Below are positions 2,111 to 59,905 of a stretch of DNA of 64,000 nt, one piece after another (positions within the stretch are counted from its first letter, which is position 1; each line of letters opens with the position of its first letter). The translations under genes and the position numbers were made by a program. The notes beneath the pieces are model-generated. The model was not told the origin of the DNA, did not search any database, and was given only the letters and a program-made list of their open reading frames with translations. The DNA is from Candidatus Moranbacteria bacterium UBA2282 (lineage in GTDB: Bacteria; Patescibacteriota; Minisyncoccia; Moranbacterales; UBA2206): NCBI GenBank assembly GCA_002345745.1, contig DDWQ01000003.1, forward strand, positions 6,028 to 70,027, written 5' to 3'.

Positions 2111-2572
2111 TCACGCTTCTAGAGTTATCCTCCTTTGATTCTCATCCAACCATTCAAACTTAATTCTGACCGCCTCCTTCGGCAGGATTTTTTTAATGCG
2201 TTCTGACCATTCTACTATAATAATATTTTTTGGATCTGCAATTATCTCTTCCCAACCAAGATTCAGCAAATCCTGAGCCTCAATACGATATGCGTCTATA
2301 TGGTAAACTTTTTTGATTTTATTTGAAATTTGAAATTTGTCTGCCGTGGCGGATGAAATTTTTGTCTCGTATTCCTTCATTATCAAAAAAGTTGGGCTTG
2401 TGTATGGGCCTTTTGCACCCAAACCTTGCAGTAATCCTTGGGTGAACGTAGTTTTGCCGGCACCCAATTCACCATCCAAGCACAAAACTTCCCCACCGCG
2501 AAGTTCCAGCGCTAACAATTCGCCCAGCTTTTGTGTTTCTTTATGATTATTCGTGATAAACTCTTTATTCAT
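2111..2572 (-). CDS. tsaE: tRNA threonylcarbamoyladenosine biosynthesis ATPase TsaE (YjeE)
   Basis: P-loop GELGAGKTTFTQGLLQGLG and ~150 aa size are typical of TsaE. Confidence 0.85.
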   Translation of the reverse strand: MNKEFITNNHKETQKLGELLALELRGGEVLCLDGELGAGKTTFTQGLLQGLGAKGPYTSPTFLIMKEYETKISSATADKFQISNKIKKVYHIDAYRIEAQDLLNLGWEEIIADPKNIIIVEWSERIKKILPKEAVRIKFEWLDENQRRITLEA

Positions 2573-5838: not shown

Positions 5839-6198
5839 ATGAAAAAAGCATTGGTGATTTTTTCTATAATGATTTTTGCTGTTTTTTGTCAGACAATTAC
5901 AGCTGAGGCTACTGAATATGTAGTGTGGGATACAGTACTCTCAATATATGGGCAAAGTGAGCAAGAAAGTTCAGCACATCTGATTAGATCTTCTAAGGGA
6001 ATATATAATAATGGCATGCACCCATGGTGCGGTGATCGTGCCTATATTTTACTAACTGATAAGGCACTATATGCTACAGCCTTAGCATCTTCAATGGCTG
6101 AAAAGCATGTGAATTTCATCTATGAAGATGCGGCACCGTCAAAAACAGCTAGAGATCACATTACATTTGGCTGTAAGGTTATAAGTATTTTCTGGTAA
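5839..6198 (+). CDS. Small secreted hypothetical protein
   Basis: Signal peptide MKKALVIFSIMIFAVFCQTITAEA. Confidence 0.45.
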   Translation: MKKALVIFSIMIFAVFCQTITAEATEYVVWDTVLSIYGQSEQESSAHLIRSSKGIYNNGMHPWCGDRAYILLTDKALYATALASSMAEKHVNFIYEDAAPSKTARDHITFGCKVISIFW

Positions 6199-22944: not shown

Positions 22945-25467
22945 ATGAAAAATATATTTACTATTTTTAGAACTTTCAAACGCGCACCGTGGCCAATTCG
23001 TTGGAAAATGCTGGGTAAATTGGCATTATATGCACTTGCTGTTTTTACTTTGCTAGCAATTGGAACTTTTGCCTATTTCGCCAAAGATTTGCCAGATGCA
23101 AGTGGCATTAGCAAGCGAGCAGTGACAGAATCAACAAAAATTTATGATCGTACTGGCGACCATTTGCTCTATGACATTCACGGTGAAGAAAAAAGAACTA
23201 AAATTGAATTTGCCAGTATGCCAGACACGGTTAAGTTTGCAACAATCTCACTCGAAGACAAAAGCTTCTATTCTCATCCAGGCTTTGATGTTAAAGGTCT
23301 TCTTAATGCTGTTTTGTCTAATATTACACGCAGTGGCGGTGGTCGTGGCGGATCGACTATCACTCAACAATTTGTTAAAAATTCTATTCTAACTAGCGAA
23401 CGATCTCTTTCCCGAAAAATTAAAGAGTTAATTCTAGCCATTGAATTGGAATTTAAATTTTCTAAAGACGAAATCTTGGCAATGTACCTTAATGAAATTC
23501 CTTATGGCTCCAACGCCTATGGCGTGGAAGCGGCATCACAAACTTTTTTTGGTAAACACGCATCAGAATTAACATTGGACGAATCTGCACTACTTGCCTC
23601 CCTACCACAAGCTCCGTCATATTACTCACCCTATGGAAATAACACGGATGCTTTGCGTGGACGCCAAGTTTTTGCGCTAAATGAAATGGCTAAATTAGGT
23701 TATATAACCCAAGAGCAATCTGATGCCGCCAAAGAGGTGGATATTTTAGCTAAAATAAAACCCTCTTCTGAAAATATTACTGCTCCACATTTTGTGATGT
23801 ATGTCAAAGAATATTTAGAAAAAACTTATGGGCAAGCTCTATTGGAAAAAGGCGGGCTTAGGGTTTATACCACCCTCGATTGGGATAAGCAACAAATAGC
23901 GGAGCTTGCAGTCAAAGAAGGTGCTGTTTCTAATACAGCTAAATATAAAGCTGAGAATGCCTCCCTTGTTGCGATGGATCCACGCACAGGACAAATAATC
24001 GCTATGGTAGGTAGCAAAAATTATTTTGACAAATCCATTGATGGTCAAGTCAATGTTGCCATTCGTGATCGCCAACCAGGCTCATCATTCAAGCCCTTTG
24101 TCTATTTGACCGCCTTCCAAAAAGGCTATACACCCGAAACGCAATTATGGGATGTAGATATAAACTTCTCGACTGACGACGGCAAAACTTACAATCCAAA
24201 AAATTATGATGGCAAAAACCGCGGACCATTAGAAATGAAAAATGCCTTGGCAATGTCTCTTAATGTTCCTGCAGTGGAAACACTCTATTTAGCTGGCGTC
24301 AAAGATTCTATTACCACTGCTAAATCACTCGGTATTACTGGACTAAATAAACCCGATGATTATGGTCTTTCTTTGGTTTTGGGTGGTGGCGAAGTGACAC
24401 TTCTAGATCACACTAATGCTTATGGCACTCTAGCTACGGGTGGCATTCACCATGATAAAGTTGCTATTTTAAAAGTTCTTGATGCTGATGGTAAAAAATT
24501 AGAGGAATATAAAGAAGAATCTGGGCAAAGAGTAGTGGAAGAAAAATATGTTGCTATGCTTGATTCTGTTATCTCGGATAATTCTTTGCGTGCCCCCGTA
24601 TTTGGTACCAACAATCCATTTAATTTTACTGACCGACCTGTGGCTGCTAAAACTGGAACGACTAATGAATGGCGCGATGGTTGGGCAATGGGTTACACTC
24701 CATCAATTGTGACTGGGGTTTGGGCTGGTAATAATGACAATTCTATTATGACACCCGGTGCTGATGGAATTTTTGTAGCTGCCCCTATTTGGAGAAAATT
24801 TATGGATGGCGTTTTGAAAAATTATACTGTTGAACAATTTCCAAAATATGAAAAAGAAGATACCGGCAAGGCAGTTTTGGATGGCACACTTGATCCAATG
24901 GCAAAAATTGAAGTGTGCAAAATCAAAAAAGACAACTATTGCCTAGCTAGTGATGCTTGCCCGAAAGGTTATTCTGAAGAAAAAACTTTCTTTTCAGGTC
25001 ACAACATTCTGTGGTATGTTAACAAAGATGATCCACGCGGAGATTTTCCGAAACACCCAGAAGATGATCCACAATTTAAAAATTGGGAAAAAGCAGTGCA
25101 AAAATGGGCTGAAAATAGCAAGGATTTTTCCAAAAATGTCGCTCCAACCGAAGAATGTAAGGTTAGTGATTTTGCCAATATTGCTCCCGAAGTTAAAATC
25201 TCTGCCCCTGCTGATGGTGCTACTATATCCTCCAATTCCATTACCATTGAAGCCTCAGCGTCATCTGATTTCGGCATAGAAAAAATTTCTATCGCCGTTA
25301 ATGGCACAGAAATAGATTCCAAAAATGACGCGTCTATCAGTGCTAATTATTTAATCTCTTCTCCTGGTTCTGATTTAAAAATTACTGCCACAGCAATTAG
25401 TAAAAATGGTAGCTCCAAGGCGATATCTATTACCGTAAAGACTACCACACCAACACCAGAGCTATAA
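22945..25467 (+). CDS. Class A penicillin-binding protein (PBP1A-type glycosyltransferase + transpeptidase) with a C-terminal extension
   Basis: GT51 motif RGGSTITQQFVKN; transpeptidase SSFKP (SxxK) and KTGT motifs; N-terminal TM anchor. Confidence 0.9.
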   Translation: MKNIFTIFRTFKRAPWPIRWKMLGKLALYALAVFTLLAIGTFAYFAKDLPDASGISKRAVTESTKIYDRTGDHLLYDIHGEEKRTKIEFASMPDTVKFATISLEDKSFYSHPGFDVKGLLNAVLSNITRSGGGRGGSTITQQFVKNSILTSERSLSRKIKELILAIELEFKFSKDEILAMYLNEIPYGSNAYGVEAASQTFFGKHASELTLDESALLASLPQAPSYYSPYGNNTDALRGRQVFALNEMAKLGYITQEQSDAAKEVDILAKIKPSSENITAPHFVMYVKEYLEKTYGQALLEKGGLRVYTTLDWDKQQIAELAVKEGAVSNTAKYKAENASLVAMDPRTGQIIAMVGSKNYFDKSIDGQVNVAIRDRQPGSSFKPFVYLTAFQKGYTPETQLWDVDINFSTDDGKTYNPKNYDGKNRGPLEMKNALAMSLNVPAVETLYLAGVKDSITTAKSLGITGLNKPDDYGLSLVLGGGEVTLLDHTNAYGTLATGGIHHDKVAILKVLDADGKKLEEYKEESGQRVVEEKYVAMLDSVISDNSLRAPVFGTNNPFNFTDRPVAAKTGTTNEWRDGWAMGYTPSIVTGVWAGNNDNSIMTPGADGIFVAAPIWRKFMDGVLKNYTVEQFPKYEKEDTGKAVLDGTLDPMAKIEVCKIKKDNYCLASDACPKGYSEEKTFFSGHNILWYVNKDDPRGDFPKHPEDDPQFKNWEKAVQKWAENSKDFSKNVAPTEECKVSDFANIAPEVKISAPADGATISSNSITIEASASSDFGIEKISIAVNGTEIDSKNDASISANYLISSPGSDLKITATAISKNGSSKAISITVKTTTPTPEL

Positions 25468-25482
25468 ATTTCTACTAATAAT

Positions 25483-25515
25483 AAAAGCCGTTTCAAATTG
25501 CGAAGCGGTTTTTTT
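25483..25515. terminator. Bidirectional terminator between the convergent PBP gene and the DUF721 gene
   Basis: gccgtttc-aaattgc-gaagcggt hairpin (with G-U pairs) followed by T7. Confidence 0.5.
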
Positions 25516-25538
25516 ATTGCGATGTATTCACGCTCATT

Positions 25539-25820
25539 TTATTTAACCTTGATGCCGTCAATTGAACCTTCACCCAATTCTGCATTCAACTTGCGCACAA
25601 TGCGTGCCTTATTAGTCCAAAGCTCTGAAGCCCAAGTAGAGCTCTCTGATTTTATAAAGAGAACTTTATTTTTATAATAATCTGGAATGAGTTTCTCCGC
25701 ACCAACATTGCCAAATTCTTCTTTAATAACTTTTTTAAAAACATAAAAAATCGTCTGATCATCCAAAGTCCGTTTTTGAAAAATATTCTTTTTAGCTAAA
25801 TAATTTTTGAGTATTTTCAT
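25539..25820 (-). CDS. DUF721 (DciA-like) protein
   Basis: ~93 aa with SSTWASELWTNKARIVRKLNAELG, typical of DUF721 proteins found near dnaN/dnaA. Confidence 0.65.
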   Translation of the reverse strand: MKILKNYLAKKNIFQKRTLDDQTIFYVFKKVIKEEFGNVGAEKLIPDYYKNKVLFIKSESSTWASELWTNKARIVRKLNAELGEGSIDGIKVK

Positions 25821-25867
25821 AATTTTAACACAAACACTGCTTTAATTTGAGCTATTTTAACCACCTA

Positions 25868-26806
25868 TTATTTTTTCAAATAATTAAAAATACTGCGTGC
25901 AGCAATTGCACCTTCCGCTGCGGCCGTGATAACTTGGCGAAATTTATCAGAACCATTCGTAATGTCACCAGCCGCCCACACGCCAGAAATGGATGTGGCA
26001 CTATCGGCTTGAATTTTAATATAGTTTTTTTCGTCAATCTCTAATTGTAAATCTCTAGCAAAATCAACATTTGGATCGGAGCCAATTTCAATAAACACGC
26101 CGTCCACAGCAATTTCGTCGCTGTCTTTATATTTTTTATCCAGTACAACCTTTTCCACTTTGACCTGTCCAGAAATCTCCTTTAAATTAGTGTTATAAAC
26201 AACTTCGATCTTGGAATTTTTCTCAATTAATTTTTGCCAATATGGCTCACAACGCAACTGATCTTTACGATAAATTAAATAAACTTTTTCTGCGATATCA
26301 GCCAGATATACAGTGGCGCCAGCAGCACTATCGCTGCCACCGATTACTGCTATGGTTTTATTACGATAAAAAAAACCATCACAGGTTGCACAATGCGAAA
26401 CACCCTTGCCAAGAAATTCTTCTTCGCCTTTCACACTAAGTTTACGCCGTTTCGTGCCTGTCGCTAGAAGAATTGTTTTGGCTTCTAGAATGTTACCGTT
26501 GTCTAACTTCAGTTCGAATAGATTATTTTCTTTCGTGATAGTTTTCACGGTTGTTGGTATAATTTCGGTACCATATTTTTGTGCATGATGCCCCAGCTTC
26601 TGTGAAAAATCAAAACCCGTCGCATCTTCAATGCCGGGATAATTATCAATCAAGTGTGTTTCAGAAATTTGTCCACCAAGAAGACTGCCAACAATGATAT
26701 GTGCGACTCCATAACGGGAGGCATAGATTGAAGCAGTCAGACCAGCGGGACCAGCACCAACGATTACTAGATCATAGTTTTTTTCTGGTTCATTTTTATT
26801 TTCCAT
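25868..26806 (-). CDS. trxB: Thioredoxin-disulfide reductase
   Basis: FAD motif DLVIVGAGPAGLTASIYASRY and redox-active CATCDG. Start set at MENKNE, not the upstream Met. Confidence 0.9.
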   Translation of the reverse strand: MENKNEPEKNYDLVIVGAGPAGLTASIYASRYGVAHIIVGSLLGGQISETHLIDNYPGIEDATGFDFSQKLGHHAQKYGTEIIPTTVKTITKENNLFELKLDNGNILEAKTILLATGTKRRKLSVKGEEEFLGKGVSHCATCDGFFYRNKTIAVIGGSDSAAGATVYLADIAEKVYLIYRKDQLRCEPYWQKLIEKNSKIEVVYNTNLKEISGQVKVEKVVLDKKYKDSDEIAVDGVFIEIGSDPNVDFARDLQLEIDEKNYIKIQADSATSISGVWAAGDITNGSDKFRQVITAAAEGAIAARSIFNYLKK

Positions 26807-26947
26807 AATATTATAATTAAGGTCTATTTTAAAAAAATTTAATAACCAAAAACCAAGAAAGCAATAACCAAACAACTTACAAATCTCAAACTTTGAATTT
26901 TTGTTTATTGAATATTGCTTGGTTATTGTATCTTGTTTCTTGGTGTT

Positions 26948-27280
26948 TTACTGAATTTCTGCTTCTAATTCTGATTTAAAGGCATCTTTTGGACGGAAAC
27001 CGACAAAATCTTTGGCGACCTGTCCTTTTTTAAAAAGCTTCATATTGGGAATGCTTTGAATTTGATATTGCCCAGCAATAGCTTGATTGCTTGCATCTTC
27101 CACATCCAACTTAGCAATCACAACTTTACCAGCTAATTCTTCTGCCAATTCATCTAGAACTGGAGCCATCATTCGGCAGGGTCCACACCACGGTGCCCAA
27201 AAATCAACCAACACTGGCAACTCCGCTTGTAAAACTTCTTTTTCGAAATTTTCACTTGTTAGTACAATAACTTTACTCAT
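26948..27280 (-). CDS. trxA: Thioredoxin
   Basis: WAPWCGPCRMMAP active site, 110 aa. Confidence 0.9.
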   Translation of the reverse strand: MSKVIVLTSENFEKEVLQAELPVLVDFWAPWCGPCRMMAPVLDELAEELAGKVVIAKLDVEDASNQAIAGQYQIQSIPNMKLFKKGQVAKDFVGFRPKDAFKSELEAEIQ

Positions 27281-27322
27281 ATGATTAAAAATTTAATTTA
27301 ATTAACTTCTTACGCCACAGAT

Positions 27323-27604
27323 CTAATTTATTTTGAATAATGTCTGCAAAAATTTTTCGTCAATTTCTTGATGTGTTTTTCGTTTGCACAAAAATTCATC
27401 TTTCAAAAGTTCAATCCCCAGCACGGTCACCGCTTGCCGAATCGCCGATATTTGCTGGATAATATCTACACATTCTCTTTTTGATTCCAACATCCGGCGA
27501 ATACCCGCCACCTGCCCTTCAATCCGCGCAATTCTTTTTAAAACTTTTTCTCGCGTAACTTTCTTTGTTTCTGTTTTATTTTTTAGCTCTTTTTTCTTTT
27601 GCAT
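27323..27604 (-). CDS. CsoR/RcnR/CstR-family (DUF156) repressor, two-Cys type lacking the metal-site His
   Basis: RIARIEGQVAGIRRMLESKRECVDIIQQISAIRQAVTVLG matches the CsoR family helix pattern. Cys at the x and z positions, but the His (y) position is Asp. Confidence 0.8.
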   Translation of the reverse strand: MQKKKELKNKTETKKVTREKVLKRIARIEGQVAGIRRMLESKRECVDIIQQISAIRQAVTVLGIELLKDEFLCKRKTHQEIDEKFLQTLFKIN

Positions 27605-27618
27605 ATTTTTGAAATTTG

Positions 27619-27632
27619 TCCGCCGTGGCGGA
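27619..27632. repeat. Perfect 14-bp GC-rich palindrome tccgccgtggcgga in the 5' leader of the CsoR-family gene
   Basis: Exact dyad symmetry, 14 nt upstream of the start codon on the minus strand. Confidence 0.5.
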
Positions 27633-27650
27633 TAGATTTTGGAATTACAA

Positions 27651-27671
27651 GTATACTACCCCACAGTATAC
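27651..27671. promoter_or_regulatory. Candidate CsoR/RcnR-type operator (gtaTACT-accccac-AGTAtac; TACT-N7-AGTA with a C/G-tract spacer)
   Basis: 7-bp inverted arms around a C4/G4 tract. On the opposite strand it reads TACTgtGGGGtAGTA, close to the RcnR-type site TACT-G6-N-AGTA. Located ~50 bp upstream of the repressor start. Confidence 0.55.
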
Positions 27672-27732
27672 CGCAATCGCTCCCCACCTGTCAAGGCAAA
27701 TAAAAAAACAAAATTGATGTGTCTTTTTTAAC

Positions 27733-28188
27733 TTAAAAATTCTCACTATGTGCCCGTTCATAAAACCCGCGTAAAATTGTCCTTTCAATGATGTGTCCTT
27801 CCATCATTTTACGAATGGTTTTTTTATTTAATGCTGGATCAAGTGGTAACAAAATATCAAGCGCATATAATTTAAAAAGATAGACATGCGTTCCAATAGG
27901 CGGACATGGTGCAATATATTCTGACTTTCCCATTTGCGAACAACCTATAATTATTCCATCTGGTACACTATTTCTTTTAATAATTTGATTTTTAGGTTCA
28001 ATATTCCACACCAGCCAGTGAATAAAACTACCACCAGGAGCATCCGGATCATCAACAATCAATACTAAGCTTTTGGTGCTTTCCGGCACTTCAGAAATTT
28101 CCAACTCTGGTCTATCCCCATCCCCATCACAAGTAAAAGCCATTGGAATAGCCTGTCTATTTTCAAAATCAGAGCTTTGTAGTTTCAT
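27733..28188 (-). CDS. PEBP/YbhB-YbcL-family (Raf kinase inhibitor-like) protein
   Basis: LVLIVDDPDAPGGSFIHWLVWNI is the PEBP signature. Confidence 0.8.
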   Translation of the reverse strand: MKLQSSDFENRQAIPMAFTCDGDGDRPELEISEVPESTKSLVLIVDDPDAPGGSFIHWLVWNIEPKNQIIKRNSVPDGIIIGCSQMGKSEYIAPCPPIGTHVYLFKLYALDILLPLDPALNKKTIRKMMEGHIIERTILRGFYERAHSENF

Positions 28189-28225
28189 AAATTTTTATTT
28201 AATTTATTTCTCTATACAAATCTAC

Positions 28226-29380
28226 CTAGCTTTTAATCGGCATCACAATATAAGTATAATCTTCCACAATTTCACCACTTTTCTCATTTATTTCCTTAAT
28301 AGCTACCGGTGAAGATTCACTATTCATCAAAATAGCCACTTTTGAAGTGGTAATAGTATTTATTCCATCTAGTAGGTATTTTGAATTAAAAACTATTTCC
28401 TGAGATGCTCCTACAATATCCACAACGACTTCAGAAGAGTTTTCACCTGACTCTACACTCCTTGCCTCAATGAGGGTTTTTTTATTGTCTGCGTCGATTT
28501 TAAGCACAATTTCATTAGTTTTACCATTTGCAAAAATACTTGATATTTTAATTGCACCTTGAATTATATTTTTTTCACCAACTATATTTGTTTTAAATTC
28601 TGTTGGCATAATGTGCTTATACTCGGGATATTTTCCGTTAATTAAGCGAGAAACTATCTGTACGCCATCTAATTCAAAAAATATTTGACCATCTTCAATT
28701 GCAATTTTCACTTCCTGATCAATATCCCCTGCTATTATTCTCGCTAATTCCACAAAAGTGTTTGCTGGAATAATTAGCGTGTCTTTTTTGTTTATAAAAG
28801 CAACATATTCACTATTAATATTTTTATCCTCTAATTTTAATTTATCTTCTACTAGGCGAAAACTATCTGTTGAAGCAAATATAATTTCGTTTTCCTTTAA
28901 AATTAAATTTATTCCTGTTAATTCTTGACGAGTTTCATTAAAAGCTACACAAGTTATAACTTTCGCAATTATATTTTTTAATTTTAAGCTTGATATAGTT
29001 AAAATAAATTCTGTGCTTTTTTTAGGTAATAATGGGAAATCATCTGCAGGTAACCCTTTTATTATAGCTTTAGCTAAACCACTTTGAATTTTAAGATTTT
29101 GATCAACTACCTCTAGACTAATATTCTCGCCTTGTGGAAGATTATTCGTAAAATTACTAATTAGTTTTGCTGGTATTGTTATTTTCCCTTCTCTTTCTAT
29201 TTTAGCTCCGATTTGAACAGAAACACCTATCTCAAGATTAGTTGCTGAAAGTTTTAAACGACCTTTTTCTGTTTCAAATAAAATATTATTTAAAATAGGT
29301 AGGGTATTTTGTTTAGAAACCATTCTTTCAGAATTAAAGATAGCTTTTTTAAAATTTTCCTGAGTACAAATTAATTTCAT
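28226..29380 (-). CDS. dnaN: DNA polymerase III beta sliding clamp
   Basis: MKLICTQENFKKAIFNSERMVSKQNTLPILNNILFE N-terminus, 384 aa, directly downstream of dnaA. Confidence 0.9.
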   Translation of the reverse strand: MKLICTQENFKKAIFNSERMVSKQNTLPILNNILFETEKGRLKLSATNLEIGVSVQIGAKIEREGKITIPAKLISNFTNNLPQGENISLEVVDQNLKIQSGLAKAIIKGLPADDFPLLPKKSTEFILTISSLKLKNIIAKVITCVAFNETRQELTGINLILKENEIIFASTDSFRLVEDKLKLEDKNINSEYVAFINKKDTLIIPANTFVELARIIAGDIDQEVKIAIEDGQIFFELDGVQIVSRLINGKYPEYKHIMPTEFKTNIVGEKNIIQGAIKISSIFANGKTNEIVLKIDADNKKTLIEARSVESGENSSEVVVDIVGASQEIVFNSKYLLDGINTITTSKVAILMNSESSPVAIKEINEKSGEIVEDYTYIVMPIKS

Positions 29381-29654: not shown

Positions 29655-31028
29655 TTAGATAATCGCATACAAGCGTTCCTTGAGAGTATTTATTTCAGAA
29701 ATTAATTTTTCATTATATTCTAATTCTTTAGATATTTTGTCATAAGCATGAATTGCGGTAGTATGATCGCGTCCGCCTAATTTCTCACCTATGCCGGGGT
29801 ATGAATATTGTAGTTCGCTCCGCATAAGATACATTGCAATTTGTCTTGGTTTGGCAATTTCTTTTTTTCTATTTTTTATTATTAAATCATTTGGCTCAAT
29901 ATCATAAAAGGAAGAAACAGTATCTATAATATGTTTATGGGTGATATTTTTCTTTTTTCCACTAGCAATAAGCTCGGAAAGTAGGGATTTTACGTAAGGC
30001 AAGTCTAATTCCTTATTACTAAGCTGTGCTGAAACAAAAACACGATTAAGTGCCCCTTCAAGCTCGCGGATATTATGGGTAATGTTTTGAGCAATAAAGC
30101 TTAATGCCTCGATTGAAATAGAAATATTTTCATCAGACACTTTTTTATTTAAGATAGCCATTCTTGTTTCAAGATCAGCCTTAGAAACATCAGCAATCAT
30201 ACCTCCTTCAAATCTAGATCGCAAACGTTCCTCAAGTGTGGGAATAGCTTTAGGTGCGCGATCACTGCTAAGTACAATTTGTTTGTTTAATTGATAGAGA
30301 TAATTAAATATATGAAAAAATTCTTCTTGCGTTTTTTCTTTGCCAGAGAGAAATTGTACATCATCAATAATTAAAAGATCTATTTTTTGGTAATGTTCTT
30401 TAAATTCATTTATTTTTTGCGTGCGGATTGAGTCAATAAGTTCATTAGTAAAACGCTCAGAAGTAATATATTTTACTTTCTTATAGGGATTATGTTTAAG
30501 AATTTCATTGCCAATAGATTGTAATAAATGAGTCTTTCCTAAACCAACACCACCATAAATAAAAAGCGGATTATATATTCTTCCAAGACTTTGTGAGACT
30601 GCATAACAAGCAGCACGCGCCAATTCATTACTGCCACCAACAATAAAATTTTCAAAAGTATATTTTAGATTAAGGTTATTCTCTTGGCTTATATCATGGT
30701 TTTTTTCGGAAAAAGAGATCGGTGAACTTATTTTTTTAGGAGGGCGTATCGCATCTATATTATTTTTCTTTATGTTGCTATGACTAGTTTCTATAGCACA
30801 AGAAACCTCCTTAATATCGCTTTGAATATTTTTTAATGCACGCAAAATATAGACATTATATTTATTTTCAAGCCATTCTTTAGCAAAGCCATTAGGAACG
30901 CTAATGATAACACAGCCATTAGCACTGGAAAGGATAGAAGTATTTTTAAACCATGTAATAAAATTAGCTTTCGAAATTGAAAGTTCTATTTCCCCTAAAG
31001 CGGCTTGCCAGAGCTCTTCGTTGGTCAT
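29655..31028 (-). CDS. dnaA: Chromosomal replication initiator DnaA
   Basis: AAA+ Walker A GGVGLGKTHLLQSIGNE; C-terminal DNA-binding domain; 457 aa. Confidence 0.9.
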   Translation of the reverse strand: MTNEELWQAALGEIELSISKANFITWFKNTSILSSANGCVIISVPNGFAKEWLENKYNVYILRALKNIQSDIKEVSCAIETSHSNIKKNNIDAIRPPKKISSPISFSEKNHDISQENNLNLKYTFENFIVGGSNELARAACYAVSQSLGRIYNPLFIYGGVGLGKTHLLQSIGNEILKHNPYKKVKYITSERFTNELIDSIRTQKINEFKEHYQKIDLLIIDDVQFLSGKEKTQEEFFHIFNYLYQLNKQIVLSSDRAPKAIPTLEERLRSRFEGGMIADVSKADLETRMAILNKKVSDENISISIEALSFIAQNITHNIRELEGALNRVFVSAQLSNKELDLPYVKSLLSELIASGKKKNITHKHIIDTVSSFYDIEPNDLIIKNRKKEIAKPRQIAMYLMRSELQYSYPGIGEKLGGRDHTTAIHAYDKISKELEYNEKLISEINTLKERLYAII

Positions 31029-59407: not shown

Positions 59408-59905
59408 TTATAAAATTTGTTTATGTTTATAAATTGACACTACTGTTATTATAACACCAATTGAAATAAAAACATCAGCCAGATTAAATATTGGTCCAAT
59501 AGGTTGATTAATAAAGTCAATAACGCAACCAAATTGCAGTCGGTCGATGACATTTGAAAGTGCTCCAGAAAGAATTAATAAAATTCCAAAATCCAAATTC
59601 CAAGGTACAAACACCTTGCCTACCGGCAGGCAGGAATTCCAACTCTCAAAATCCAAAATCCAAAATCGCTTTGCGGCTTGAATATTTGAATTTGTAATTT
59701 GTTTGTTGTTTGTTTTTTGGTGCTTGTTTTTTAGGATAATATAAATAATTGTAGTGGTTATCATGAGCCACAAAGCCCAAAAAACAATTGGGTTTATGTG
59801 CAATCCAAAAGATATACCCTCATTGCAAATATAAAATCCGCCCTCGTGGCGGACTAAATATTTACTCAGTTGATCAATAAAAATAAGCAGTAATAGCAAA
59901 AACAT
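59408..59905 (-). CDS. lspA: Lipoprotein signal peptidase II
   Basis: NEGISFGL, SNVIDR and NLADVFISIGVI conserved LspA boxes. Confidence 0.8.
   Translation of the reverse strand: MFLLLLLIFIDQLSKYLVRHEGGFYICNEGISFGLHINPIVFWALWLMITTTIIYIILKNKHQKTNNKQITNSNIQAAKRFWILDFESWNSCLPVGKVFVPWNLDFGILLILSGALSNVIDRLQFGCVIDFINQPIGPIFNLADVFISIGVIITVVSIYKHKQIL

Follow-up and report, generated by a model that had tools for sequence, protein, structure and literature searches.

The regulator, its operator and the downstream genes

Contig DDWQ01000003.1 of Candidatus Moranbacteria bacterium UBA2282 (assembly GCA_002345745.1) carries a gene for a small protein of the CsoR/RcnR family, which is followed on the same strand by the genes of a thioredoxin (trxA) and a thioredoxin reductase (trxB). 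The stretch that was analysed (64,000 nucleotides, positions 6,028 to 70,027 of the forward strand of the contig) is called the window below, and all positions refer to it unless stated otherwise. A preliminary description, made from the letters of the window, had proposed that the protein is a redox- or electrophile-responsive switch which controls the thioredoxin system. The features of the locus are the following:

27689..27694, minus strand: −35 hexamer TTGACA of the operon promoter (best promoter match in 25400-28300, kept in orthologues)
27665..27670, minus strand: −10 hexamer TATACT, which is the left arm of the operator (promoter match and orthologue alignment)
27651..27671, no strand assigned: putative operator, a 21-bp palindrome GTATACT-GTGGGGT-AGTATAC (uniqueness in the window and conservation in orthologues)
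27612..27639, minus strand: GC-rich hairpin in the 5' leader of the regulator gene (core TCCGCC-AC-GGCGGA at 27619-27632)
27323..27604, minus strand: putative CsoR-family repressor, 93 residues (PF02583 match)
26948..27280, minus strand: thioredoxin TrxA, 110 residues, with WCGPC (PF00085, 115.8 bits; passes the thioredoxin equivalog model TIGR01068 with 119.7 bits, cut-off 96.8)
26846..26944, minus strand: long AT-rich hairpin followed by UUUUU...UUUUUUU in the trxA-trxB spacer, terminator- or attenuator-like (folding)
25868..26806, minus strand: thioredoxin reductase TrxB, 312 residues, with CATC (TIGR01292, 340.4 bits, slightly below the cut-off of 343.45; Pyr_redox_2, 164.6 bits)
25539-25820, minus strand: DciA-like gene, after trxB

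The regulator matches PF02583 (CsoR/RcnR) with 69.4 bits over residues 18-71, for a cut-off of 22.8. Its AlphaFold2 model (mean predicted local distance difference test score of 81.6) is a three-helix CsoR protomer, with helices at residues 2-40, 45-76 and 83-89; Cys45 opens helix 2 and Cys73 lies near the end of the same helix. All of the 19 top matches in a fold search of the PDB are CsoR-family structures, and the best one in both sequence and fold is the CsoR 4M1P (E-value of 3.6e-12, or 1.1e-16 by profile). The family, the length and the fold given in the preliminary description are thus borne out. The protein nevertheless scores far under the curated cut-offs of the RicR, RcnR and FrmR models (for RcnR, 44.3 bits compared to 138).

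The regulator contains exactly two cysteines, Cys45 and Cys73, which are 28 residues apart, compared to 29 in the canonical CsoR/CstR proteins that were recovered as an out-group. Pairwise and profile alignments to the solved structures of CsoR, InrS and FrmR, and to a canonical relative, place Cys45 at position X of the W-X-Y-Z ligand set of the family, and Glu70, not Asp69, opposite the His of position Y. A gap of one residue between the Y column and the second cysteine leaves Cys73 at Z-1. The preliminary description had cysteines at X and Z and an Asp in place of the metal-ligand His: the X cysteine and the lack of His stand, but the second cysteine comes one residue before Z, and it is Glu70, not Asp69, which fills the Y column.

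These traits are conserved. In an alignment of 146 relatives, which are 42-82% identical to the regulator of the window, Cys45, Cys73, Arg27, Gly30, Gln31, Met38, Gln51, Glu65 and Phe90 are invariant. The Y position is occupied by Asp (126 sequences), Glu (19) or Gln (1) and never by His; 102 of the 146 proteins contain not a single His. Neither His nor Pro is conserved in the N-terminus, which forms a variable tail rich in Lys: residue 2 is Gln in the window protein, and Pro2 occurs in just 11 of the 146 relatives.

The comparison with the ligand sets of the characterised subfamilies gives the same picture. For CsoR (x-C-H-C), the X cysteine is present, but Y is never His among the 146 relatives and the second cysteine is at Z-1. 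For RcnR (H-C-H-H), positions W, Y and Z of the regulator all lack His, and the RASK motif is absent from it, with RIAR (of the CsoR RxxR type) instead. For InrS (H-C-H-C), no His is found at W or Y. For FrmR (P-C-H-x), the protein has Gln2, the Lys-rich tail and no His. For CstR (x-C-x-C), there are two invariant cysteines and no His ligand at Y, but the spacing is 28 instead of 29 and the Y residue is acidic instead of Asn. The regulator is a clear member of the CsoR/RcnR superfamily which does not appear to carry the defining ligand set of any characterised subfamily. A full Cys-His-Cys triad, whose presence on proper alignment would have refuted the preliminary description, is absent. As to the likeness to CstR and FrmR that had been seen in it, an FrmR-like mechanism is unsupported because Pro2 is lacking, and the regulator seems not to be of the plain CstR type because its Y residue is Glu70 and its second cysteine is displaced by one.

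The best sigma-70-type promoter match in 25400-28300 is TTGACA-18-TATACT (27694-27665, 11 of 12 positions). The palindrome, which had been noticed about 50 bp upstream of the regulator, overlaps the −10 hexamer, and its near edge is 46 nt from the ATG. A protein sitting on it would mask both the −10 hexamer and the start site, a typical arrangement for repression. The general operator motif of CsoR proteins is TAC-X9-GTA, and type-1 sites have been defined by AT-rich inverted repeats, 6-9 bp apart, which enclose a single G/C tract of 3-8 bp; the operator of the window agrees with both (PMC3902906). It fits TAC-N9-GTA, with a single G4 tract and TACT and AGTA arms 7 bp apart.

ATACT-N7-AGTAT is found at a single place of the window, where the full 7+7 palindrome is expected 0.0008 times from the base composition, and the operator is also the sole TAC-N9-GTA site with a G/C tract. 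In 12 distinct orthologous promoters (those of the clade of the window, with a regulator identity of at least 65%), TATACT-N3-GGGGAGTAT is the sole block conserved at 90% or more, and TTGACA is found at the matching spacing in all 12.

The start of trxA is 42 nt past the stop codon of the regulator gene. No hairpin (z of 0.03), terminator or promoter match was found in this spacer. A terminator at this place had been named beforehand as an observation that would refute the proposal, and its absence supports the predicted co-transcription of the regulator gene and trxA.

The situation is different between trxA and trxB, where the 99-nt hairpin has a folding energy of −38 kcal/mol (z of −4.57, none of 200 shuffled sequences being equally stable). 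Strong folding (z of −2 to −6.8) is also found in 10 of the 13 checked relatives whose trxA-trxB spacer is long enough, with unrelated sequences, and the hairpin has the look of a conserved element for termination, attenuation or processing which would set the ratio of TrxA to TrxB. The order and strand of the two genes downstream of the regulator are thus as first described, and trxA follows directly, but a terminator-like hairpin separates trxA from trxB. In close relatives (loci L017-L019), trxB comes directly after the regulator gene, with a gap of 21-48 nt, so that trxB appears to be part of the regulon of the family.

An Rfam search of 25400-28300, which includes the hairpin, returned no family, the sole match being a chance microRNA (E-value of 0.44). 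A search of the window with a 14-nt arm of the hairpin gave six loose matches for 1.3 expected, three of them inside the hairpin itself and the other three with two mismatches each, which is no clear evidence of a repeated element. A separate promoter for trxB was considered and rejected, the only matches overlapping the trxB start codon in AT-rich DNA and the next ATG being out of frame. A 335-residue version of the trxB reading frame, starting at the TTG at 26875, is an over-extension.

A motif scan of the window revealed no other thioredoxin, glutaredoxin or thioredoxin reductase signature. Within these 64 kb, trxA and trxB are indeed the only visible thiol-reductase system, as had been claimed; the claim concerned the cell, and the rest of the genome lies outside the scope of the scan.

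Relatives, neighbourhoods and operator types

Loci of the family (numbered with the prefix L where they have to be told apart) were collected from species-representative genomes (6), from metagenomes (80) and by exact look-up (7). The closest proteins, with 64-82% identity, come from metagenome bins of Candidatus Moranbacteria or Moraniibacteriota. Every complete regulator that is at least 46% identical to the window protein has two cysteines 28 residues apart, and the exact look-ups agree; three complete regulators carry an additional third cysteine near the N-terminus.

Gene context was counted in deduplicated loci with at least 1.5 kb of downstream sequence, on the same strand and within 3 kb. 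A trxA gene, a gene of the thioredoxin reductase type, or both, lie co-directionally downstream in 44 of the 46 distinct loci whose regulator has the spacing of 28, and the gap between the regulator and the thioredoxin gene is often just 8-60 nt. On the contrary, none of the seven distinct out-group loci has a thioredoxin-system gene beside it. Some of them show other motifs instead: proteins with a canonical C-H-C set adjoin CopA-type ATPase motifs (L007, L008 and L010), and those with C-N-C (CstR-type, 39-40% identity) adjoin rhodanese-like motifs (L080-L093). The context method therefore discriminates. No P-type ATPase (CopA) or HMA motif was found on the same strand near any member, a DKTGT match in L049 being on the opposite strand. 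The rhodanese-like motif, which is the sole sulfur-detoxification motif that was sought, is absent next to members except for isolated pattern matches in L063 and L065.

The arrangement varies. The regulator gene may be followed by trxA and trxB or by trxB, by a glutamate dehydrogenase gene and a flavoprotein gene of the AhpF-C-terminal/TrxR-like type, by a short-chain dehydrogenase gene and the same type of flavoprotein gene, or by an SBF-family transporter gene and trxA.

The glutamate dehydrogenase (ELFV_dehydrog) shares a co-directional unit with the regulator and the thioredoxin genes in 19 of the 46 loci (it was recorded in L002-L004, L006, L025, L028, L029, L034, L045, L056, L061, L064, L066-L069 and L095). 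Its score against the GdhA model, 503 bits, is under the cut-off of that model, and no glutamate dehydrogenase motif occurs in the window. One may speculate that this enzyme supplies NAD(P)H, or reducing power, to the reductase.

The flavoprotein of the sister clades (L013, L020, L025, L028, L029, L034, L051, L056-L059, L061, L064, L066 and L068) differs from an ordinary TrxB: it is just 32-37% identical to the TrxB of the window and matches the AhpF C-terminal model better than the thioredoxin reductase model (311 bits compared to 266); it usually has no adjoining thioredoxin gene. The transporter, of about 351-354 residues, lies between the regulator gene and trxA in L006 (4258-5313 of that locus) and L067 (3008-4072), and its match to ACR3 is weak (69.5 bits for a cut-off of 282.8).

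Wolfebacteria and unclassified Parcubacteria provide the more distant members, and there is a one-Cys match from Pacebacteria. They score at least 94 bits, compared to about 80 for ordinary CsoR proteins. The four distant members that were looked up all have the spacing of 28, a TACCCC...GGGGTA box and downstream thioredoxin genes, with unrelated flanks. The pairing is thus kept in a Wolfebacteria locus and in an unclassified Parcubacteria locus despite different flanking genes.

Two loci stand apart. In L054 (3139-4459), which stops about 1.4 kb downstream of the regulator gene, the latter is followed by an extracytoplasmic-function-type sigma factor (Sigma70_r2 and r4) and a 247-residue membrane-like open reading frame, with no thioredoxin genes. 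L002 (CAZMNQ010000015.1) was binned as 'uncultured Bdellovibrionales', and its regulator-trxA-trxB-gdh unit is 73-80% identical to the window proteins. Most likely this is a contig of Moranbacteria placed in the wrong bin, and no evidence of a wider host range.

TAC-N9-GTA boxes are found upstream of nearly every family member. In all clades other than that of the window, the box has two tracts, TACCCC-N3-5-GGGGTA, which is the ordinary type-2 box of CsoR; the RcnR-type look of the window operator is therefore a derived state within the family. Of the operator assignment made at first, the type-1 architecture holds and the RcnR-type label needs amending, the site being a clade-specific derivative of the ordinary CsoR box.

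The type of operator covaries with helix 2 of the protein. Residue 50 splits perfectly with it, since all 12 type-1 loci have Gln there and all 40 type-2 loci have Thr, Ala, His or Val, and residues 43 (Arg in type-1 loci, mostly Lys in type-2 loci) and 57 (Gln and Glu, respectively) split alike. The three positions are seven residues apart on helix 2, beside the invariant Gln51. The covariation amounts to one evolutionary event and may serve as a lead, not as statistical proof, as to which residues read the operator.

Arg27 and Gln51, present in 146 of 146 sequences, align with Arg57 and Gln81 of Streptomyces lividans CsoR, whose Ala mutants give no binding profile in isothermal titration calorimetry (PMC3902906). 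This suggests that Arg27 and Gln51 contact the DNA. The clade-specific switch of operator and the co-varying helix-2 residues point to definite mutants with which DNA recognition by CsoR proteins, a question not yet settled, can be approached.

The order of genes on the minus strand of the window is dnaA (29655-31028), dnaN (28226-29380), a YbhB/PEBP-family gene (27733-28188), the regulator gene, trxA and trxB. Since some 2 kb separate it from dnaA-dnaN and the DciA-like gene comes after it, the operon probably adjoins the replication origin. In L001 the genes stand in the same order from dnaA through dnaN, the PEBP-family gene and the regulator to trxA; L003 and L006 retain dnaA, dnaN and the regulator, and L004 retains the PEBP-family gene and the regulator. 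No Shine-Dalgarno sequence is recognisable for the regulator gene, trxA or trxB (27605-27620, 27281-27295 and 26807-26820, respectively). Their start codons all lie in AT-rich, unstructured DNA, which may be a genome-wide feature.

The leader of the regulator gene also contains the GC-rich hairpin. What had been called an exact 14-bp palindrome (27619-27632, TCCGCC-GT-GGCGGA on the complementary strand) is a 6+2+6 structure, which can be extended to arms of 13 nt with 85% complementarity, separated by 2 nt. It represents one copy of a palindromic mini-repeat, TTTGAAATTTGTCYGCCGTGGCGGAT, of which the window contains two copies in the same orientation (27612-27639 and 2327-2354); a 22-nt pattern containing the hairpin recurs at 2333-2354, with 0.00 matches expected by chance. 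The second copy is in frame inside a TsaE/YjeE-like open reading frame (2111-2572, minus strand), where it codes for ...KISSATADKFQISN..., and a related TCCGCC-loop-GGCGGA hairpin lies at 59837-59853.

Among the other orthologous leaders, just that of L016 has a similar GC hairpin; similar ones also turn up in other loci, at unrelated positions. Compared with L002, the leader of the window looks as if a GC segment of 10-14 bp had been inserted, and the mini-repeat may be a small mobile palindromic element. A role of the palindrome as a second operator or attenuator was rejected: it is missing in 10 of the 12 orthologous leaders, and on the transcribed strand it lacks a U run behind it. The hairpin is a dispersed repeat copy which is probably no part of the switch.

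A proposed thiol switch and its competitors

The features described above (both cysteines invariant, His absent, partners that reduce thiols) are read most simply as a switch which is thrown by thiol oxidation and reset by the products that it controls. We consider it rather probable that the regulator is an autoregulated switch of this kind, in which a crosslink between Cys45 and the Cys73 of another subunit releases the DNA and thioredoxin resets the sensor.

In such a switch the repressor would bind GTATACT-GTGGGGT-AGTATAC over its own −10 hexamer and start site, and thereby shut off the regulator-trxA(-trxB) transcript. The sensing pair would span two subunits: one contributes Cys45, where its helix 2 begins, and the neighbour contributes Cys73, close to where its own helix 2 ends. 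Oxidation of these thiols, for which disulfide stress, peroxide or another thiol oxidant are candidates, would crosslink the subunits and make the tetramer, a dimer of dimers as in the superfamily, leave the DNA, so that thioredoxin and its reductase would be produced. Reduced thioredoxin would most likely re-reduce the sensor and bring repression back. The loop would then act as a homeostat which matches the supply of thioredoxin to the demand, and the hairpin after trxA would probably lower the output of trxB relative to that of trxA. General oxidants seem favoured over persulfides because sulfur-detoxification neighbours, as far as the rhodanese-like motif shows, are lacking, and the regulator is probably an undescribed thiol-redox switch since its pairing with thioredoxin genes recurs across Parcubacteria.

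Several points weigh against this proposal. The second cysteine appears to be one residue off the canonical register, which bears on the geometry of a dithiol site, and two thiolates could also bind a soft metal. From the genomic context, general oxidants cannot be told apart from persulfides or electrophiles. In this genome the hairpin behind trxA may disconnect trxB from the promoter. Lastly, the regulon is wider than thioredoxin, since some loci add a glutamate dehydrogenase, a short-chain dehydrogenase or a transporter.

The competitor which survives best, although we think it unlikely, is a CstR-like sensor of persulfides or reactive sulfur species, in which the cysteines would be bridged by a di-, tri- or tetrasulfide and the induced thioredoxin system would clear protein persulfides. 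Like the x-C-x-C clusters of persulfide sensors, the family has two conserved cysteines and no His (PMC8643695). Thioredoxin-like proteins of Staphylococcus aureus are reported to reduce protein persulfides (PMC6196236). Many of the metagenomes that contain members are from groundwater or sediment, judging by the names of the records, and sulfide is assumed to be present there. On the other hand, the rhodanese-like motifs which stand beside the CstR-type out-group are absent by the members, the isolated matches in L063 and L065 excepted, and both the spacing of the cysteines (28 instead of 29) and the acidic Y residue in place of Asn depart from CstR.

The remaining explanations (metal sensing, signal-free autoregulation and FrmR-like chemistry) are less likely. 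Sensing of a thiophilic metal or metalloid is improbable; the ion, such as Cu(I), Cd or As(III), would be held by the two thiolates and perhaps the carboxylate. Most proteins of the CsoR family are metal sensors, Cu(I) sites made of two thiolates are known in other regulators, and the SBF-family transporter, which resembles ACR3, sits between the regulator and trxA in L006 and L067. But the His ligand of position Y is lacking in all 146 relatives, CopA-type motifs are found beside the canonical out-group and, on the same strand, beside no member, the ACR3 score of the transporter is low, and the partners that are conserved are redox enzymes.

An autoregulator that responds to no signal, in which negative feedback steadies the operon and the cysteines are structural, seems a shade less probable still. 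An operator placed on its own promoter would suffice for homeostatic feedback, and the small genomes of the candidate phyla radiation (CPR) may do without signal sensing; this would nevertheless leave unexplained the exclusive pairing with thiol-redox enzymes, and both cysteines are invariant in 146 sequences of 42-82% identity, at positions which sense signals in characterised relatives. As for an FrmR-like sensor of aldehydes or other electrophiles, which would let go of the DNA once Cys45 is alkylated or engaged in a methylene bridge, it is very improbable: the conserved X cysteine and the name 'FrmR family' in the Joint Genome Institute annotation speak for it, but FrmR is P-C-H-x (PMC8643695) and the regulator has Gln2 (Pro2 in 11 of 146 relatives) and a Lys-rich tail, the FrmR model gives 43.2 bits for a cut-off of 133, and no aldehyde dehydrogenase is found among the classified downstream open reading frames, no dedicated search having been made.

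Significance and comparison with known systems

A literature search, with subscription journals mostly outside its coverage, returned no CsoR-family regulator of trxA or trxB and no redox regulator from CPR bacteria. The main text of a network study of the whole family does not mention thioredoxin, and several large clusters are left uncharacterised there (PMC8643695). Tentatively, and with somewhat less confidence than in the thiol switch itself, we suggest that the regulator may be the first described redox regulator of Parcubacteria and represent a new functional branch of CsoR proteins, a thioredoxin homeostat with a C-x27-C dithiol and an acidic Y residue. Its inter-subunit disulfide would be reduced directly by its own thioredoxin, and protein and operator would have switched together in the clade of the window, from a two-tract CsoR box to a one-tract RcnR-like box, through residues 43, 50 and 57.

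CPR bacteria have tiny genomes, few regulators and no cultured genetics, and the control of their genes is almost unknown. What emerges here is a short, fully specified module of promoter, operator, sensor and output, which is shared among lineages of Parcubacteria and lends itself to in vitro tests that need just three small proteins. The CsoR field would gain a regulon, the thioredoxin system, often with glutamate dehydrogenase. It would also gain a variant of the sensing site, with a shifted cysteine and an acidic Y residue, which bears on how the scaffold is tuned among metals, persulfides and oxidants. If the joint switch of protein and operator is true, it is a natural experiment in how the CsoR family reads DNA.

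Among known systems, CstR (from Staphylococcus aureus, Enterococcus faecalis and Streptococcus pneumoniae; PDB 7MQ1-7MQ3) appears to be the best mechanistic model, by analogy. It is a two-Cys protein of the CsoR family in which H2O2, oxidised glutathione and persulfides give crosslinks between protomers; its cysteines are 7-8.6 Å apart and the side chain of position Y, wedged between them, tunes the reaction (PMC8643695). CstR and the regulator share the fold, the conserved cysteines at the start and near the end of helix 2 and the lack of a His ligand. They differ in the spacing (29 and 28) and in the Y residue (Asn in CstR, Asp or Glu in the family of the regulator). The targets of CstR are the genes of rhodanese, CoA-persulfide reductase and sulfide oxidation, whereas those of the family studied here would be trxA and trxB, plus gdh and others. 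The identity of the pneumococcal CstR to the regulator is just 28-38% over the columns aligned in the fold search.

The Cu(I) sensors of the CsoR type (from Mycobacterium tuberculosis, Streptomyces lividans and Geobacillus thermodenitrificans; 2HH7, 4ADZ and 4M1P) are the best matches in sequence and fold, and they share with the regulator the RxxR and Gln residues that contact DNA. The sister-clade box TACCCC-N-GGGGTA is close to the consensus of streptomycete CsoR, ATATACCCCTNAGGGGTATAT (PMC3902906). The ligands of CsoR are Cys36, His61 and Cys65 (M. tuberculosis numbering), whereas the regulator lacks the His of position Y and its second cysteine is shifted by one; the neighbours of CsoR are copA and copZ, in contrast to the same-strand neighbourhoods of the members, which hold no P-type ATPase or HMA motif.

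RcnR, the Ni/Co sensor of Escherichia coli, has a type-1 operator, TACT-G6-N-AGTA, whose TACT and AGTA arms, 7 bp apart, and single G tract are shared by the operator of the window. The RcnR operator is a tandem pair with G6, whereas that of the window is one site with G4; RcnR has the H-C-H-H ligands and RASK, and the regulator has RIAR and lacks these ligands. The type-1 shape in the family of the regulator is derived from a type-2 box. FrmR has an N-terminal Pro2, Cys35 and His60, and the regulator has neither the Pro nor the His.

Feedback by thioredoxin is known from sensors that are unrelated to CsoR: RsrA-SigR in Streptomyces, Spx in Bacillus and OxyR in E. coli. In these systems a thiol switch induces the thioredoxin system, which in turn reduces the switch, and the same logic is proposed here. 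The sensors themselves are of other kinds, RsrA being an anti-sigma factor, Spx a protein that binds RNA polymerase and OxyR a LysR-type activator, whereas the regulator of the thioredoxin genes in Moranbacteria would be a simple repressor bound to its operator.

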